Assembly: GCA_951406725.2 (NCBI GenBank)
Contig: OX597829.1
Span: 24,428,001-24,492,000 of the forward strand
Source of the DNA: Octopus vulgaris
Taxonomy: Eukaryota
Length of the DNA: 64,000 nt
Reading direction: 5' to 3'
The position numbers and the translations under genes are program-made. Every line of letters begins with the position of its first letter. Positions within the stretch are counted from its first letter, which is position 1. Positions 6,803 through 63,182 of the stretch are shown here, piece after piece. Under the pieces are notes generated by a model, which ran no database searches, was not told the DNA's origin, and saw only the letters and a list, made by a program, of their open reading frames with translations.

Positions 6803-9800
6803 ATCATCATCATCGTTTAACGTCCGTTTTCCGCGCTAGCACGGGTTGGACGGTTCGACCAGGGTCTGGGAAGCCAGGGGCTGCACCAGGCTCCAGTCTG
6901 ATCTGGCAGTGTTTCTACATCTGGATGCCCTTCCTAACGCCAACCACTCCGCGAGTGTAGTGGGTGCTTTTTACGTGCCACCTGCACAGGTGCCAGGGGG
7001 GTCTGGCATCGGCCACGATCGGTTGGTGCTTTTAATGTGCCACTGGCACGGAAGCCAGCCAAGGCGGCGCTGGCATCGGCCACGTTCGGATGGTGCTTTT
7101 TATGTGCCACCGGCACAGAAGCAAGTCGAGGCGGCGCTGGCAACGGCCATGTTCGGATGGTGCTTTTTATGTGCCACCGGCACAGGTATCACAACTACTA
7201 TTTCTATTTATTTCGATGTTCATGTACTTGACTCAACAGGTCTCCTCAAGCACAGCGAGATGTTCTGGGATCCAAAGTACTTTGAATGAGCAGGGGCTAT
7301 GCGGAACTGGTGCAGGAAGCAGCCTGGGTTTTTGCAGTCACAGCATATCTCCAGAGATCTCGGTCCTTCACCATTGCCTCAGTGAGGCCCAACGCTCTGA
7401 GGTCATGCTTGACTACCTCATCCCATGTCTTCCTGGGTCTACCTCTCCCCCTGATTCCTTCAACTGTTTGGGAGCGGCACTTCTTCACACATCTCTTCTC
7501 ATCCATCCGCAGTACATGACCATACCATCGCTCTTACACACCACATCTCATGCTACTTATGTCTAGCATTTCTCTCAGGGTGCTTACACTCTGTCGTGCA
7601 TTCACACTGACATTACATATCCAGCGGATCATGCTAGCTTCATTTCTTTCAAGTATACACATGTCCTCTGCAGTCACGTCCCATGTTTCACTACCGTGAA
7701 GCATGGCAGTTTGCACACATGCATCATACAATCTACCTTTCACTCTGAGTTAGAGATCCTTTGTCGCCAGTAGTGGTAGGAGCTTTCTGAACTTTGCCCA
7801 GGCTATTCGTATTCTAGTGGTGACACTCTCTGAGCATCCACCTCCACTACTAACTTGGTCACCCAGGTAGCGGAAACTATCGACTACTTCTAGTTTCTCC
7901 CCCTGGAGTGTGATGGAATCTGTTTTCTGAGTATTTGTAGTGTCTATTGTCCCTGTGCATCTGCCGCACATGAAAGCTATCTTATCAGTTAATTTCCCTT
8001 TGATGTTGCTGCACCTCTTATGTGTCCATAGCTTACACTGGGTGCATCTTATGGAGTTTCTACCTACACCTTTCCTACAGATCGAGCAGGGCCACCTGCC
8101 TGATGGGGTGTGTGCTGAGTTCGCCTTTCTGCTTACTATAACTTTGGTCTTCGCTACATTTACTCTAAGGCCCTTTGATTCTAACCCTTGTCTCCACACC
8201 CGAAATTTCTTTTCTAGTTTCGGTAGTGATTCTGCTATGAGAGCCAGTTCATCAGCATAGAGGAGCTCCCAGGGGCAACCTGTTTTGAATTCCTCATTTA
8301 TTATTTGGAGGACTATGATGAATAAAAGGGGACTGAGGGCTGAGCCTTGGTGTACATCTACTTCTACCCGGAATTCTTCACTATATTTGTTGCCAATCCT
8401 AACCTTGCTGACAGCCTCTCTGTATAGGGCCTGCATCTCATCTAAGCAAATTCTCTCCCTAATGAGATGGGTTATGACCCTCTCTGTGATCTTCATTACC
8501 TGATCCAACAGTTTAATACCCCTGTAGTTATTTATATCTAGAGCATCACCCTTACCCTTGTAGCAGTTGACTATGGTGCTGCTACGCCAGTCATTGGGTA
8601 TGACTCCATTATGAACTACCTGGTTTACAATACGGGTGACTAGGCCATAGCCCACATAACCAATTGTTTTAAGCATCTCAGCAGTGATTCCTGATGGGCC
8701 GGGGGCTTTACCTGGTTTCATACCCTTAATTGCCTTAACTACAAGGGAGCTGTCTATTTGGATAGCTGGTCCCTCTACTGGGTCAACATTTGGCAGGCTC
8801 TCCTCCTCCCATTCATTCTCCACATTCAGCAGTCTTTCATAATGGCTTCTCCAAACATCTTTCTTTTCACCAACATTAAAAGCAAGTGCCCCATCATCCA
8901 TGCGGACACATTTCTCTCCTGTAACATCACTATTTTCTCTCACACACTGTCTAGCAATCCGAAATACCTCAGTTCTTTGGTCCTCACATCGCTGGACATT
9001 GGCAAACTTCTTCTTTTCTGCTATATCTTTGGCTATGTATACCTGCCGCCCGGCCTCCCTTTTGGCTATTTGGTACAGTTCCCTGCTACCCCCACCCTTC
9101 CAGGCCTGTTTGTTTGCACTAATGGCTTCGTCTACTGCACTATTCCACCACCACGTAACTCTAGGTCTGGAAGGGACTTTGCACCATCCACAGACTAGGT
9201 CTGTGGCACTCAGCAAGCTGTCCCGTAGGAATTTCCAGCTACCTTCTATGTCCGACGTCTGTAGCTCCTCCTCTCTCTCATCAAATTTCTTGATGAGGAT
9301 GTCCCTAAATCTCTGACCATGTGAAGGGTTCTTTAGCTTCCAAATCCTTCTTTTCTGGATTGGTCTGTTTCTTGGAGTCCTGGCCTCAAGCCTAAAGTCA
9401 CTAATGATTAGCCTATGCTGAGGGATACATTCTTCACCCGGGAGGATCTTTGTATTTAAGAGCAACCCTGCATCCCGCTGTCTGGTGAGGATGAAGTCTA
9501 TTTGGCTAGCGGAGTCTCCTGACTGATAAGTTATAAGGTGGCAGTCAGGCTTCCTGAAGTTAGTGTTGCAGATTAAAAGGTTACATGCATCACAGAATTC
9601 CAGTAGTCTAGTTCCCTCATCATTTCTGATGCCAATACCATGGCCATCGTGTACCCCAGTGAAGATACCCGATTCCCGCCCAACATGCCCATTAAAGTCT
9701 CCACCCACAAAGATGAGGTCCTTGCCACTAGTCTTTGAGGTAGCCTGTAGAAGGGTATCATAAAAGTGGTCCTTCTGATCATTTGGTAGCCCCGCATGTG

Positions 9801-11220
9801 GGGCATAGGTGGAGATAATCGTAGCTGTGCCACTCTGTAGGACTAACCTGAGCTTAAGCACTCTATCGCAAACCCTGACAACCTCTATGACCTTATCCAT
9901 CCATTTCTCCGCAAGGAGAATGCCTACACTCCCTACAACATCCATGTTACCTTGCCAGAAGACTTTATACCTATGTGCCTTGCCTGTGAGGACTCTAGCT
10001 GAAGCACTTCTTACCTCTTGTATGCAGCATACACCAACCCATCTTCTCTCAAGCATCTCTACAATCTCACTAGACCTACTTTTCAGTGTACCAACATTGA
10101 CAGTGCCAACTCTGAAAACTGGGAAGGAGACGTGGGGAGGAGGGGTGCAATTCAGCGCCTGAAAAGAAGAGGGTTGTTGTGGTGGTGATCGTTTTTTAGG
10201 CATTTTTCGACTGATCTCTCTTCTGACCTGACAACATTCAAGCATTTAAGCATGTGTTAGCAGCATTGTAAGCATAAGCATTAAGGTCATTGATGATGTA
10301 GATGTAAGCTCTGTGGTAGAAATACTGAAATTCTAGGTGTTAGTAGTATTCTAAGCAAGCATTATGGTCATTGAGCAATGTGGTTTAAGCAGTGTAGCAG
10401 AAACATGGATATTCTAGAGATGGGGTGGGGTGGGGGTTCCAGCAGGGAGAAGAGAGAGAGTGAGGGGAGGAAATGGGGAAGAGAGTGCAGGCAATATAGG
10501 GGAGCACCAGTGGCGAGGGGTGTTAGGAGAAACGATGACAGGTAGGGGTGGTGGCAGTTTCTAGACAAAATTAAACATAGGATATCACGAGAGAGGGAGG
10601 GACTGGAAGGAGGGGAAGATAAGCAGGGGTAATACATAGTGAAATAGCATATTGAGGAGGAGGGGTTCAAGGAGTAGACACACATAATGGTGGTGGGAGA
10701 AGGGATATCCGGTATAGATGGAGTAAATATATAGAGAGATATCTGGTATTGGTGGTTGGGGTGGGAAAGGGCGGTTGCACCGCGAATGGCGAAGTTTTGA
10801 TTCAGGAGAGAGCGGCAGATATATGGAAAGAGAAGAATTAGGCAAACGGGGTTTGACAACGTACAAATTATCGTAGAGAGCGAGCAAAGGACAAAGTAAT
10901 ATGGAGAAAGGAAGAAAGAAGGAAAGAAAGAAGAAATTATCAGCACATAGGGACGAATTATTACGAGATAGGACTGAAAATGAAAAGATTATATTTTGGG
11001 AGACAATATCAACAGCTTAGCTCACGAAAAGAAACAACAAGCAGATTAGTAAATAGATAATACATTTTTTAGTGTTAGTGGCGAATGTAGTACGAGTGGT
11101 CAAGAAGTGAAATGAGGAATTCTTAGCTTATCTAGCTTCGGACATCGCTGCTCGATGAATATGGAGCACATGGGGGTAGGATATCCAGGGGTAACGCAGT
11201 TACGATTGTTTCATGCAACT
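6803..11220 (-). mobile_element. Near-full-length, inactivated RTE-clade LINE (APE endonuclease, RT and PHD finger)
   Basis: ORF 10245-7750 carries VGTVNVGTL, CCIQEV, GDFNGHVG, SQIDFIL (APE) and KAPGPSG, YRGIKLL, HQGSALSP, LLYADE (RT). It continues by frameshift in 7743-7534 and 7506-7297 (RGRGRPRKTW). A 3' region with tandem repeats and a (GAT)n tail extends to about 6803. The 5' boundary is approximate. Confidence 0.88.
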
Positions 11221-14497: not shown

Positions 14498-14577
14498 ATA
14501 AATATTAGGGAATAAATCCAAACTTACAGGGAAAAATCAGATTTAGGATTGAATCCAATTTATAGTAAAATATTATA

Positions 14578-14729
14578 TTATATAAATTAGAGACAAAACC
14601 ACTATTATGCAAATCAAACAAAGAAAGACTTAATCCAATACATATAATAATATAAATTAATTTATGTATTGGATTAAGTCTTTCTTTGTTTGATTTGCAT
14701 AATAGTGGTTTTGTCTCTAATTTATATAA
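14578..14729. repeat. Perfect inverted repeat (about 67-bp arms)
   Basis: TTATATAAATTAGAGACAAAACC...CCAATACATA (14578-14644) is the reverse complement of 14663-14729. Confidence 0.85.
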
Positions 14730-15174
14730 CATATATATATATACATACATACACGCACACAAATATGCATGACCATGTAATCAGTAATCCAGTAACCTTA
14801 TATAACACTAACTTTATAAGAATTATTGGAATTTCAAATATAATAAAACTGAACTGTTTTCCTAAACTACGTCAGGGTGAAAACTGTCAATAGTTTAAAA
14901 ATAGTTTAATGTCAATAGTTTAAAAAGTATATCAAGTAAGAAAATGCCATTGATTTAGGGCAATCAGTATTCTAACTAATTAGTAATTAGTTTATTTGCT
15001 TGTAACAATTTTTATATAAAACAACAACTTAGGATTTCTGATAAAAATAAATTTGTAAATATTCAAAATTTTTACTTAATATTTTATAAATGATAATATC
15101 TAAAGCTACTTATCTAATGACTGCAAATGAAGCTTTGTGGATTTCTTACTCTCATTCAAAGAATACACTTTATA

Positions 15175-22634: not shown

Positions 22635-23368
22635 TTTACATGATTTATATTTGATGGATATTTGTCCTCACCTTGTTTGCTGTTAACAACAACATTTCAG
22701 CTGATATACTCTCCAGCCTTGGGGAAATTTCGAACCTGGGTTCTCATTCCTAAGGTATTTTTCAATGTTATTATTATTCAGGTCACTGCTTGGAATTGAA
22801 CTTGGAATCTTATGCCATATGCCTGTAGGCAATTATGGAGTGAATTTTAGGGCTTATAAATCTAATATGGAAAAATAGAGACCACCTCCCCTGTGAGATA
22901 AAGTTAAAATAATAGACAGAGAACACCACTGGAAAATACAAAAACTAAAAGAAGCAGCACATATGCTAGGACACAACCTCCTAAGCAGATGGAGTGCAGA
23001 TATGAATAGCATATGTGAACCGGTATTAAGGAAGGATAGGAGAATATTAGATTTATAAGCCCTAAAATTCACTCCATAATTGTCCACGGGTATATGACAT
23101 AGTGCTTAAGAGCATGCGCTACTAACCTCAAGATTCCGAGTTTGATTCCAGGCAGTGACCTGAATTAAGACAATAAGAATAATATTGAAAAATACTTTAG
23201 GAATGAGAACTCCGGTTTGAAATTTCCTCAAAACACCTGATGAAGGCTGGCAAATATATCAGCCGAAACATTGTGTTAACATGAAACAAGATGAGGACAA
23301 AAATCCATCAAATGTAAGTAATGTAAATGATGCACATAATTCCTCATCTCTTGAATATAGAACTGTAT
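22635..23368 (+). mobile_element. Fold-back Penelope-derived element (GIY-YIG tail between inverted tRNA-head/hammerhead repeats)
   Basis: Inverted arms at about 22635-22868 and 23044-23320. The spacer encodes a degenerate DHLP..DKVKIIDREHHWKI.KLKEAAHMLGHNLLSR. The right arm contains an A/B-box tRNA-like stretch and CTGATGA...GAAA at 23237-23268. Confidence 0.75.
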
Positions 23369-25497: not shown

Positions 25498-26621
25498 CTG
25501 TAAGAAAATACAATTATTACATTAACAAAACTTGTCATCTTGTTGACAAAATCTGTTTACAAAGCAAAAACATGCAACTTGATAAAGACTTATGTATTAG
25601 ATTATATCTGAAAATGATTAAGTTAAATTTACATATGTATTTCTGAGCAGAACGCTCTTTTTCGCAAACTGGTCTGATATTGGATGAGCTGGTGAAATGT
25701 GATCTTTGGATGTTGAGTCTCACAGAGGTGATGACAAGTGGTTGAGACCTTTGGCAAGCCAAGTGATATCATAGTTGTGGTCAGTGCTGGTAATATATAA
25801 AAGGCATCCACTACACTCTTGGAATGGTTGGTATTAGGAAGGGCATCAAGCCATGGAAACCAAGCCAAATCAGACTATCCAACTTACCAAACCTAGTCCA
25901 ACCATCTAACCCATGCCAGCATGGAAAAGGGACACTAGCACCATTCGAATGTGGTCAATGCCAGGGCTGCCTGACTGGCTCCCATGCTGGTGGCACGTAA
26001 AAAGCACCATTCGAGCATGGTCATTGCCAGTACCGCCTCTGATGGCCTCCATATCGGTGGCATGTAAAAAGCACCCATTACACTCTCAGAGTGATTGGCA
26101 TTAGGAAGGACATTCAGCTGTAGAAACCTTGCCCAAACAGACTGGAGTCCGGCACAGCCTCCATACTTAACAGTCCTCAGTCAAACTGTCCAACCCATGC
26201 CAGCATGGAAAACAGATGTTAATCAAAGATGATGATGATGATATATATATATATATGTATATACATATATTTTTAAAACATCATCATCATCATCATCGTT
26301 TAACGTCCGCTTTTCATGCTAGCATGGGTTGGACGGTTCAACTGGGGTCTGGCAAGCCCGAAGGCTGCACCAGGCCAGTCAGATCTGGCAGTGTTTCTAC
26401 AGCTGGATGCCCTTCCTAACACCAACCACTCCGAGAGTGTAGTGGGTGATTTTATGTGCCACCGACACAGGTGCCAGACGAGGCTGGCAGACGGCATATA
26501 TATATATATAAAGTATATTTTGATAAAAGAGTATATCTAAATTTGAATGGGTAAGTTTAGTCAACATGTCAATATACTATCAATATGGTATACACAGATA
26601 AAATGAAACAAATATACTTAC

Positions 26622-52967: not shown

Positions 52968-53143
52968 ACTTCTATATTTAAGAGAAGGGGAATTATGCCC
53001 ATTATTTACATTTGACGGATATTTGTCCTCATCTTGTTTGTTGCTAACACAACGTTTTGACTGATATACCCTCCAGCCTTCATCAGGTGTCCTGGGGAAA
53101 TTTCGAACCAGGGTTCTCATTCCTAAGGTATTTTTCAATGTTG

Positions 53144-53182
<39 letters not shown>

Positions 53183-53485
53183 TCAGTGTCTGGAATCGAA
53201 CTCGGAATCTTCGGGTTAGTAACCTGCACTCTTAACCACTATGCAATATGCTCACGGGCATATGGCGTAGTGGTTAAGAGCACGGGTTACTAACCCCAAG
53301 ATTCCGAGTTTGATTCCCAAGCAGTGACCTGAATAATAATAACATCGAAAAATACCTTAGAAATGAGAACCCAGGTTCAAAATTTTCCTAAGACACCTGA
53401 TGAAGGCTGGAGGGTATATCAGCCGAAATGTTATGTTAGCAACAAACAAGATGAGGACAAATATCTGTCAAATGTAAATAATGTA
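52968..53485. mobile_element. Palindromic head-to-head element of the same tRNA-head/hammerhead Penelope repeat family
   Basis: Arms at about 53001-53252 and 53255-53482 are reverse complements around ATATGCTC-AC-GGGCATAT. Hammerhead motifs at 53046-53091 (-) and 53392-53437 (+). Confidence 0.8.
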
Positions 53486-55940
53486 CAGCAGCTTTTGTCC
53501 TGAGAAAACTTCTTGTATAGACTTTCAGTGCTAACACTGTATTATATATCATATTACATATGATATAACATAATGTAAGTACTAACAAGTTGCCTGTAAT
53601 GACAACAGATATAGACCTCAATATCAATGCGAATAGAGGACAATATTCATTGGATGATACGATCATGGAGACTCATATACAGGGCTTCAAATTTCTGTGT
53701 CAACGATATGATGATCACTGCACTTCTTCAGCTGTCACAGGCCATTTTATATATTATCATCATCATCATCGTCATTATCATCATGTCATTTAACTTCCGT
53801 TTTCCATGTTGGCATGGGTTAACAGCTTGATAGGAGCTGACAAACCAGAGAACAACACCAAGCTCCACTGTCTGCTTTTGACGGGTTTTTTTTACAGCTG
53901 GATGCCCTTACTAACACCAACCACTTTGACTGACATAAAGCTATGTAGTCTACAATATGGATGATCTTGGATTATTAATATTATGACCTTAATCTACATT
54001 ATAAATATCTTAGCATATCCATGAGAAAAATAAATATTCTAAGCATACTAGTGTAAAATATCCTATTCCATCAATGTGAAGAATGTAAATGAAATTAGGT
54101 CATCAGAAACTATTTACAATATATTTTGTAATTGTATTTTCTGCAGCGAGGAGAACTATCAGCTGAAATACCTGGGTACTTGCTTAAGAACTTGAATTTT
54201 ATTTTATTTCAGTTACAAAAGTCCCAAAACTGAAATAGATATTGCAAGGCACCACCTTTGACAGCCCAACATTCTAATACACCCTTGAGGTGGAAGAGTA
54301 CTTTACTCATTGACCCTTGAAAGAGAGAATAACTTATCTGTGCATACGCACACGCATGTGCACACACACACACACATGTGCACGTACACACCGCATCTAT
54401 AATCATATTGAAACAATTATTATCTGCATATCCTTTTCTTCTAGTAGACTTCTGATAGCAAAGGAAGAATCCATGATTAAACTATTTGAAAACTGTTGAT
54501 CTTCACTTTTTCACAACACTTCCTGTTGATGGACTTGTCTTACATTTAGAAGAGGAGCAGGACTTTCCCAATAATCACTTTCAAAAAGTCTTTTCAAATT
54601 TTAATGACTGAAATAATTTCATAAGTCAAATGATAAACAAGAGCTATGATTTGCGTCCAACAACAAACTAAAGAATAAGAATAATAAAATAAATTGTTTA
54701 TGGGATATAGACAGACATATCAGATCCAACACTGTTTTAAAGGCACTCAAATGGCAGTGTGGTAAGAAGTTTGCTTTCTAATCAAATGGTTTAGGTTCAG
54801 TCACTCTGTGTGGCACCTTGGGCAAGTGTTTTCTACTATACTGCCAGGCTGATCAAAGGATTGTGGGTGGATTCAATAGGCAGAAACTGAATGAAACCAG
54901 TTGTGTATGTGTGTGTGTGTGTGTGAGATAGAGAGAAAGAGAGTGTGAGTGTATCTTTGTATTTGTGTCTTCTTAACCTACCACTTAATAACCAGTGTTG
55001 GTTTGTATATGTTCCTGTAAATGAGCAGATCAGGGAAAAGAAACTGACAGACCGGGAAAAACAAACTGACAGATTGGGAAAAAGAAACAGACTTTAAAAG
55101 TAAAAGATACTGGCTTTGATTTGTTTGTTTAAAACCCTTCAAGATGGTCCCCCATTATGGCTGCAGTCCAATGACTGAAACAAGTAAAAGATAATGGATA
55201 AAATATAGATCAACAAGTTTGTCCTTTATACCTTCTGCACTTACATAATTGCATTGATGAAGAGTATTTCTATCCAAAATATGAAGGTGACAAAAAATTT
55301 TTTTTTTTTTTTAAAACAGCCATAAAGAAAGTTCTAGTGGAGAAATGTCAGGTTGTTCATGCTGATGATATGAAAGGGATATATTGTTATTTACATTAGT
55401 GGCAATAGATTAATAATAAAAATAATAAAAAAAACATTAATGAATTATAAAATGAGGCATTATCTTACCTCCATCATTGTCATATTTAGAACCCACTTCC
55501 TCTGGAACATGAAACGATTGTCAGACTTATCTTGGAAACTTTTGGAACAAAAGCTTCAAAAATTTATTCCCCCCACATAAGTACACAAATTACAGAATAA
55601 TTCACAATTTGAGACTGAATATTATTATTTTACCATTGTAGATTATTCTCTTTTTCCCTGCACTTTACTAAATATCTCTTAAACCTGGCTATATTTTTAA
55701 AATTAAGATTCTATAATCAAATGTCATATGTTTTGAAACAATATGTTTTGAAACAATTTAAATCTGTACAAGCTATATTCTTTTTAAACAATACAATTAA
55801 TTCTAAAATTAGATATTATTATGTAATAACTGTAAATTACCACATTGAGATATTCTTTAGTCAAACACATAAACCACAACAATTAAGATTTATATATCAC
55901 ACTAGTTGTTATACAATAACACTTACTTCAGTAGTGTGTG

Positions 55941-62080: not shown

Positions 62081-62888
62081 GATGATGATTTCTTTATTAA
62101 CCACAAAGAGTTTACATTATGAAAAACATTTTGGGCAGTAGAGGACAAAACAAAGAATGTGTGCGAGTGTGTTGTTGTTGTTGCATGTAAACTGGTTTAA
62201 CATAATGAGGGGAGGGATGATAGGCAAACTATCAAAGCAAGGTCAGTACTCAACTGATACTTATTTTATTAACCTTGAAAGGACGAAAGGCAAAGTGGTG
62301 GTGGTGATAATAGTAGTAGTAATAGTGGACTCTCCCGTTGAAAATGACATTATGAGTGGTCAGCTTTTGTCGAATGACCTGCACAAATGAGTTGTTTATG
62401 GTGATCAAATGTATGTGCTGTACATTAGCTCACCTCACTCCATCAAATCAACATTACCTGAACAAATGCACAATGTACCATGAGTTAGGTGTTGCAGTAA
62501 TTGCAGAGAAACATAAAATAAAGTGCTTTGCTCAAGAATAGAATCCACTGCCCGGTCTAGGAATTGAAACCACAATCTTGTGATCATGAGTGCAACACCA
62601 TAACTACTAAAGTAGTAGCAGTAGTAGTTTCAAATTTTGACATAAGGCTAGCAGTTTTTGAAGGGAGAGAGAGGTCAAATACATCAACCCTAGAAGTTGA
62701 CTGGTAGTTCTTTTATTGACCATGAAAGGATGAAAGTCAACCTTAGTGGAATTTGGACTCAGAACATAAAGAACATAAATGCTGATAAGCATTTTGTCTG
62801 GCTTACTAATAGTTCTGCCAGCTTACCACCCTTTTTTTTTATCATTATTAGATTTTAAAGGATTGACATAGCTCTTCACAAAAGTATA

Positions 62889-63114
62889 TAGACAATACAA
62901 AGAGCACGATGCAATTGCAATAGATATTTTAGTGGTTGAGCGATATTTCAACAGCTTGCTTGTCTTTGTTGGTTCAAAATGAAAAGTGCTACATCGAAAT
63001 TCAAAATTATAGAAATTCAACATTTTGAACTCGACAAAGATAGGCAAACTATCAAAATATCATTCAGCCAATAAAATATCTATTGCAATCACATTATGCT
63101 CTTCGTATTGTCTA
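62889..63114. repeat. Fold-back/MITE-like inverted repeat (about 93-bp arms)
   Basis: TAGACAATACAAAGAGCA...GGTTCAAAATG pairs with CATTTTGAAC...TGCTCTTCGTATTGTCTA. Most mismatches are transitions. Confidence 0.7.
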
Positions 63115-63182
63115 TTATTATTATTATACTAAGGCTGGCAGAACCATTAGCACACTGGGCAAAAACTACAGAAATACATATA

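Follow-up and report, generated by a model that had tools for sequence, protein, structure and literature searches.

A probably tRNA-derived head in the terminal repeat of a coding Penelope-like element of Octopus vulgaris, and its possible use of RNA polymerase III

The palindrome at positions 52968-53486 of the 64,000-nucleotide stretch of Octopus vulgaris DNA analysed here (the window) is almost certainly a head-to-head pair of truncated pLTRs from a Penelope-like element. Taken alone, it is probably a dead insertion with nothing unusual for its known class, an old copy that lies 5-7% from the family majority and is inert. Both arms correspond to the pLTR of a high-copy autonomous element of the Penelope/Poseidon type, about 2.65 kb long, with a single frame that combines a reverse transcriptase (RT) and a GIY-YIG nuclease; the clade name is drawn from motifs and from a midpoint-rooted tree without Neptune or Nematis rows. 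The Penelope membership, the ribozyme and the palindrome of this family are of known kinds, and the new part is the head with A and B boxes, very probably derived from a tRNA to judge by its sequence, that lies inside the pLTR of a coding element. Our literature search, with Dfam, Repbase and most subscription journals outside its reach, found no description of a coding Penelope element with a promoter derived from a tRNA. The family is a Penelope variant with a surprising possibility, that of transcription by polymerase III.

The preliminary description had read the locus as a head-to-head inverted repeat, and this reading holds: the arm segments are 88-91% complementary and the two arms agree at 205 of 226 aligned bases, with the same order in each, from the tRNA-like head through (AAT)n and a hammerhead motif to an A-rich end (Table 1). 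The fold predicted for the 519-base hairpin has an energy of -338 kcal/mol. The locus looks dead because a new TTTT stands before the ribozyme in the right arm and the A box of the left arm is mutated. Non-CpG divergence is similar in the head (0.059), the ribozyme (0.044) and the flanking parts (0.043), which gives no sign of selection after insertion. The arms had also been taken for two divergent promoters set back to back, but this layout is the usual product of Penelope insertion as presented in PMC3846280 and PMC8557442, and since arm lengths differ from copy to copy the palindrome did not spread as a unit. As for the proposed location in HERC2 pre-mRNA, there is a HERC2-like exon (DOC domain) on the minus strand at 38.5-38.9 kb of the window (E=1.3e-11 to PDB 7rgw), and we infer that the palindrome is probably intronic in this HERC2-like gene; none of the frames of at least 55 aa at 48-58 kb of the window could be recognised as an exon.

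Table 1. Coordinates of the palindrome and of the second insertion of the same family in the window
Position	Strand	Feature	Basis or remark
52968..53253	-	Left arm: pLTR of a Penelope-like element, truncated at its 5' end; spans tRNA-like position 1 through the whole of the optional tail	251/271 aligned bases equal the family majority
52968..52996	-	Tail of about 30 bases, the start of the downstream coding region; left arm only	One-sided tails are known from PMC8557442 and PMC11167929
53046..53091	-	Damaged minimal hammerhead of type I that has lost core G12	Pattern match and comparison with the majority
53140..53178	-	Microsatellite of the pLTR, an expanded (AAT)n/(AAC)n run with approximate bounds	
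53179..53253	-	Left head, probably tRNA-derived; A box 53236-53246 (1 change), B box 53192-53202	
53254..53255	.	Two-base centre of the head-to-head junction	Same junction at about 470 loci
53256..53331	+	Right head, probably tRNA-derived; A box 53263-53273, B box 53307-53317 (1 CpG-type change)	
53256..53486	+	Right arm: 5'-truncated pLTR without tail	218/230 aligned bases equal the family majority
53363; 53383	+	Right arm: likely start codon of the element's frame (53363); new TTTT (53383)	
53392..53437	+	Minimal type I hammerhead of the right arm, damaged; predicted cut 53432/53433	
22637..22868	-	Second insertion of the family: inverted pLTR with internal deletion	
22867..23367	+	Second insertion: GIY-YIG coding end, then head (23088), hammerhead (23232-23277) and tail	

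The parent element was recovered from the genome itself. A search with one arm gave 4,931 first-look candidates, which are not copy numbers, and queries placed progressively further upstream gave 2,158, 456 and 234, the gradient of a retroelement that is truncated at its 5' end. Walking upstream from the arm leads into a GIY-YIG-type nuclease and then a Penelope-type RT, which bears out the Penelope origin that had been proposed. The copy at 23088 in the window, like many others, extends upstream in the same way into nuclease and RT coding sequence, so the repeat does not begin at the head as was first thought. At 6 of the 25 loci that contain the 5' end of the frame (L113, L116, L120, L123, L126 and L132), a head or ribozyme segment stands in tandem directly before the frame, which identifies the arm as the pLTR. 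The family majority, to which 83 alignments of more than 400 bases have a mean identity of 92%, is 2,685 bases long and carries a stop-free frame of 792 residues that ends about 35 bases upstream of the head; an ATG at head position 119 adds 43 codons through the ribozyme, for a total of 835 residues. The anatomy of the element is frame stop, a gap of some 35 bases, the head, (AAT)n, the likely start codon, the hammerhead, the tail and the frame. A natural copy (L061) matches RVT_1 with E=1.2e-9, the nuclease is C-terminal with a CCHH motif and a linker without an extra zinc finger according to a motif reading of the translations, and PF01541 is found in several of the homologues, of which there are 346 at E<=1e-20. 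Partial-tandem pLTRs, inverted truncated copies and the one-sided tail are all present in the family. A search of viral contigs gave no relative of the element. As a control we also looked in the genome for another Penelope family, but 30 of 30 loci matched the family of the window, and the top places of another search were largely the same. A short intron after the hammerhead, with an alternative start, was considered and dropped, since the relatives P0007, P0009 and L177 are also in frame through the ribozyme and the PAc frame is described as beginning in the ribozyme (PMC11167929). Between the ribozyme and the tail of the element there is a 9-base unit whose copy number varies while the frame is kept, and near one element copy (L011, 1-780, plus strand) lies the frame of a C2H2 zinc-finger array.

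The repeat had been proposed to be a separate non-autonomous element. This view has to be given up, since the autonomous element has this very sequence as its pLTR, and 52 copies that start at the head and 57 that reach the coding frame are identical at every majority base, so that no separate non-autonomous lineage can be distinguished.

The hammerhead pattern has three matches in the window (23237, 53055 and 53397) and the A-box to B-box pattern has two, against none of either in 100 shuffles; as both patterns were derived from the locus, these matches show that the copies are related and not that they function. The three hammerheads had been called well preserved with an intact consensus. 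The family majority is indeed an intact minimal hammerhead of type I, in which stem I has 5 bp, stem II has 6 bp and stem III is palindromic, but all three copies of the window are damaged: besides the left arm, the right arm has lost one stem III base and one stem I pair, and the copy at 23232-23277 one stem III base (positions follow the standard hammerhead numbering). The cut predicted earlier for the right arm agrees with ours. In loci that were not fetched with the query made of the ribozyme alone, all 15 core bases are intact in 21 of the 118 copies that cover the motif, and the only frequent non-CpG substitution in the core falls on the free seventh position (18 of 126). The same hammerhead layout with different but paired stems was found in 7 of the 8 related families shown. 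Rfam models matched no hammerhead in the element or in L177. Minimal hammerheads of Penelope-like elements (PLEs) are reported to cleave weakly and as dimers (PMC4209133). In the features given there for those of metazoans, namely type I, the CUGAnGA core, the extra base before stem II, stems of 5-6 bp, the palindromic stem III and the predicted dimer, the octopus motif is alike and we saw no difference.

The sequence part of the tRNA-like description of the head stood up, while the cloverleaf did not. Compared with tRNA-Arg genes of the host, the head has 49 of 73 and 51 of 73 identical bases (z about 7), although the parent tRNA is uncertain (Arg is the best) given that 30 tRNA loci of few isotypes were sampled. 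Polymerase III promoters of this kind have an A-box/B-box consensus, and a run of four T (T4) is the polymerase III terminator. The head scores 25.8 for its A and B boxes, within the 25-32 of true tRNAs and reached by none of 100 shuffles; both boxes are near consensus and the acceptor and T stems are broken. ARAGORN called no tRNA in the head, even at 80% of its threshold or above, Rfam gave no RF00005 match there, and neither tool calls a tRNA in L177, so that the suggested scoring of the repeat with hammerhead and tRNA models finds neither.

Several observations bear on whether this head was used by polymerase III, which we judge fairly likely on the sequence evidence. In the sense strand of the family majority there is no T4 run in 2,685 bases, where base shuffling gives a mean of 4.9 (P=0.006) and permutation of synonymous codons of the frame a mean of 2.7 (P=0.033, 5,000 permutations in each case); these statistics are modest. 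Runs of A, C and G are as expected, and the majority of an RTE-like LINE of this genome, equal in T fraction, contains 6 T4 in 3,120 bases. The window holds a young RTE-like LINE at 7753-10245 (minus strand) with an 831-residue frame (endonuclease and RT), whose copies are 96-98% identical, and a second piece of it at 12-715. For loci that were not selected on the head, with ends at -300..+200 and microsatellite ends excluded, 11 of 89 copy 5' ends fall at -3..+6 of tRNA position 1, where 1.9 are expected under a uniform null; this null is a crude one, given that truncations concentrate towards the 3' end. The exact head-to-head junction gave 638 strand matches, of which the first 100 represent 74 distinct places, or about 470 loci in all, close in number to the read-through junction (443). 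Four loci (L063, L083, L085 and L101), from sets assembled without selection for the head, join position 1 to a partner that is not palindromic. An imperfect palindrome of 12 bases surrounds position 1 in the native sequence, and most head-to-head junctions retain its two middle bases, so that much of the hot spot of 5' ends is explained by snap-back, as discussed in PMC3846280, without a start site.

A look for RNA-seq starts at the head had been suggested as a check. In another organism with the family (three runs of one study, about 6% of each, and one contig set) no pile of starts was seen at the head in a type of library poorly suited to polymerase III starts; many reads cross head-to-head junctions, and the two strands are equal with a depth that follows copy number, which points to passive transcription. 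The A>G and T>C differences in these reads were rejected as editing, being the decay of the reference copy itself. At L259, 1611-1657, all three RNA runs (18-19 reads each) have a 45-base skip with GT..AG ends antisense to the element, either a deletion allele or an antisense splice. Three other palindromes of the window were noted: one of 169 bases at 14570-14738, 94% self-complementary and below threshold with microRNA models, and two imperfect ones (76-77%) at 26054-26465 and 62888-63115 that are probably pairs of inverted repeats.

In order to place the head among relatives, we drew on 88 loci from other collections, with 80 of 297 metagenome relatives kept. Among these loci L177 is intact, a tandem element 2,791 bases long with 38% protein identity to the family of the window and the same order of A box, B box, AAT repeat and hammerhead; its head is colinear with ours in alignment, and it has two TTTT, which lie near the 5' end, and no T5 per unit. 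At L177 2817-3036, the anticodon arm of the head is longer by about 14 bases, at the site of tRNA introns, and the tandem units are 100% identical, which may be an assembly collapse. Among 15 families with a complete stop-to-hammerhead interval (that of the window and 14 others, one of them too short to score), A and B boxes were found only in the window's family (25.8) and in L177 (19.2), the other scored families reaching at most 11.6. T4 density is also lowest in these two, at 0 and 0.72 per kb against 1.27-8.88, but they are kin and not independent cases. T4-free frames of 1.1-1.4 kb occur in 3 of 24 relative clusters, and the boxless L201, with six T4 in its untranslated end, has none in 1,980 coding bases. 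In a quick tree of 78 RT cores, L177 comes out next to the clade formed by the window's family and P0001-P0009 (SH-aLRT 87), a group with one cluster (XP_043205075.1) named from a barnacle, Amphibalanus, and among the 88 loci L177 alone matched this group clearly best. At L013 (1491-2447) there are four tandem units of head and ribozyme, about 240 bases each, in the manner of SM-alpha; upstream of this array stands a variant hammerhead, altered by a paired change in its stem II, which was rejected as a family, with 7 weak hits, and is a single case. L275-L284 are animal-type Penelope elements in records of bacterial genome bins, most likely host DNA.

The explanation that we prefer overall, and hold to be reasonably probable, combines the truncated pLTR pair with a polymerase III start at the upstream head. 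In the partial tandem, the upstream head would drive transcription from about position 1 and, with no T run as a stop, polymerase III would read through the ribozyme, the tail and the 835-codon frame. Such long transcripts would supply the protein and a template, and solo repeats would give short RNAs, ending in flanking T runs, that could only be templates. The element protein would then initiate reverse transcription close to the tail, either on both strands of the target or by snap-back. A palindrome would be left where two copies reaching the RNA 5' end were joined head to head, or where one copy snapped back. In vitro, the PAc protein of the anole is described as cutting and extending both target strands, with reverse transcription starting at tail ends (PMC11167929). 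What may survive of the SINE idea is that short transcripts started at the head could be copied in trans, which is possible since the head-to-head junction is as common as read-through. That full-length coding RNA was made by polymerase III is a more tentative suggestion: such an RNA is uncapped and would need translation without a cap.

On a competing account, the head is a captured head of a tRNA-derived SINE, or a tRNA pseudogene, riding in the 3' region of a Penelope transcribed by polymerase II, with snap-back behind the 5'-end cluster and with chance or A-rich codon bias behind the lack of T runs. The palindrome at the junction and its retained centre would agree with this, self-priming at such palindromes having been proposed for Penelope (PMC3846280), as would the T4-free frame of L201 despite its missing boxes, the broken acceptor and T stems, and the other tRNA-derived SINE heads of the genome, which align to the head about as well as tRNAs do. 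We nevertheless consider it rather unlikely, given the non-palindromic joins exactly at position 1, boxes that stay near consensus while the stems have decayed, a similar head at the same place in L177 at so low a protein identity, and the coincidence of the lowest whole-unit T4 density with the two box-bearing families. About as doubtful is the possibility that polymerase III makes only short RNAs of head, ribozyme and tail, as SINE-like templates or trans ribozyme partners, and that the coding RNA comes from a polymerase II promoter elsewhere or from read-through. It shares the promoter step with the explanation that we prefer, it would suit the equal frequency of head-start and read-through copies as well as the L013 array, and it respects the usual view of cap need and polymerase III length limits (as given in PMC10886601), but it leaves unaccounted for both the absence of T4 across a 2.4-kb coding frame and an element without a terminator after its tail.

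The clustering of ends at the position of a mature tRNA 5' end could also reflect processing, if an RNase P cut at position 1, or a stall of the reverse transcriptase at the tRNA-like segment, set the 5' ends of copies without any promoter. An unpaired acceptor stem with no cloverleaf called, the T-run depletion, which would go unexplained, and a stall that is expected on the 3' side of the structure make this very unlikely. More improbable still is a distinct non-autonomous SINE or retrozyme family with two divergent promoters, mobilised by Penelope: many copies do consist of head and ribozyme only, but the identical sequence is the pLTR of a coding element, there are no bases diagnostic of short versus long copies, and a palindrome with arms of variable length has not spread as a unit.

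Among known systems, the closest are the Penelope/Poseidon elements, as described for PAc of Anolis (PMC11167929), for Pen of Adineta (PMC3846280) and in PMC8557442, with which the family shares the single frame of RT followed by GIY-YIG, partial tandems, the 5'-truncated inverted copy placed head to head, the junction palindrome, a one-sided tail of 30-40 bases and a hammerhead overlapping the start of the frame; to these it adds the A/B-box head in the pLTR and a unit without T4. The promoters reported for Penelope are TATA-less, LINE-like and internal (PMC2377424) or TATA/Inr-like (PMC3846280). The SM-alpha and Sj-alpha repeats of Schistosoma, as reviewed in PMC6765202, share a polymerase III-type promoter followed by a hammerhead for which tandem units are needed, L013 being similar, but they are non-coding repeats, whereas the module here is itself a coding element's terminal repeat, with a minimal hammerhead. 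TRIMp3 elements (Cassandra, Helenus and Ajax) likewise have a polymerase III promoter derived from a small RNA inside a terminal repeat; they are non-coding, non-autonomous LTR elements of 0.3-1.3 kb whose autonomous partners, on the argument of PMC10886601, depend on polymerase II. Animal non-LTR retrozymes (PMC7229834; bioRxiv 10.64898/2026.07.22.740005) are short hammerhead repeats related to PLE pLTRs, described as tandem and circular, while the palindrome locus is inverted. The terms tRNA, Pol III and promoter are absent from the text of the retrozyme preprint (bioRxiv 10.64898/2026.07.22.740005). The full-unit tandem with one hammerhead per unit, a trait of retrozymes and SM-alpha, is absent at the palindrome and was found at 1 of 30 loci (L013), and the head is internal to a coding element, where a tRNA-derived SINE has its own non-coding lineage with a fixed 5' end. 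A study of octopus repeats counts Penelope families, and the word hammerhead is absent from its text (PMC13282606).

For annotation, many of the SINE-like short copies in this genome are truncated Penelope ends. At a broader scale, we put forward, as a tentative idea only, that one branch (the window's family, L177 and probably P0001-P0009 including the barnacle element) exchanged its polymerase II promoter for a polymerase III promoter derived from a tRNA, cleared T-run terminators out of a 2.7-kb coding unit, is translated without a cap and is a source of SM-alpha-like repeats. The polymerase III model predicts that boxes and T-run depletion co-occur across the clade. In the literature covered here, the polymerase III promoters of mobile elements belong only to short parasites without coding capacity, with autonomous partners assumed to need polymerase II (PMC10886601), and a coding element built for polymerase III would, if true, break this polymerase II rule for autonomous elements. 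It would also provide an example from nature of a 2.7-kb RNA translated independently of a cap, hint at the reason why Penelope elements tolerate a ribozyme where their frame begins, and supply a source for repeats of the SM-alpha type that join a promoter to a ribozyme.
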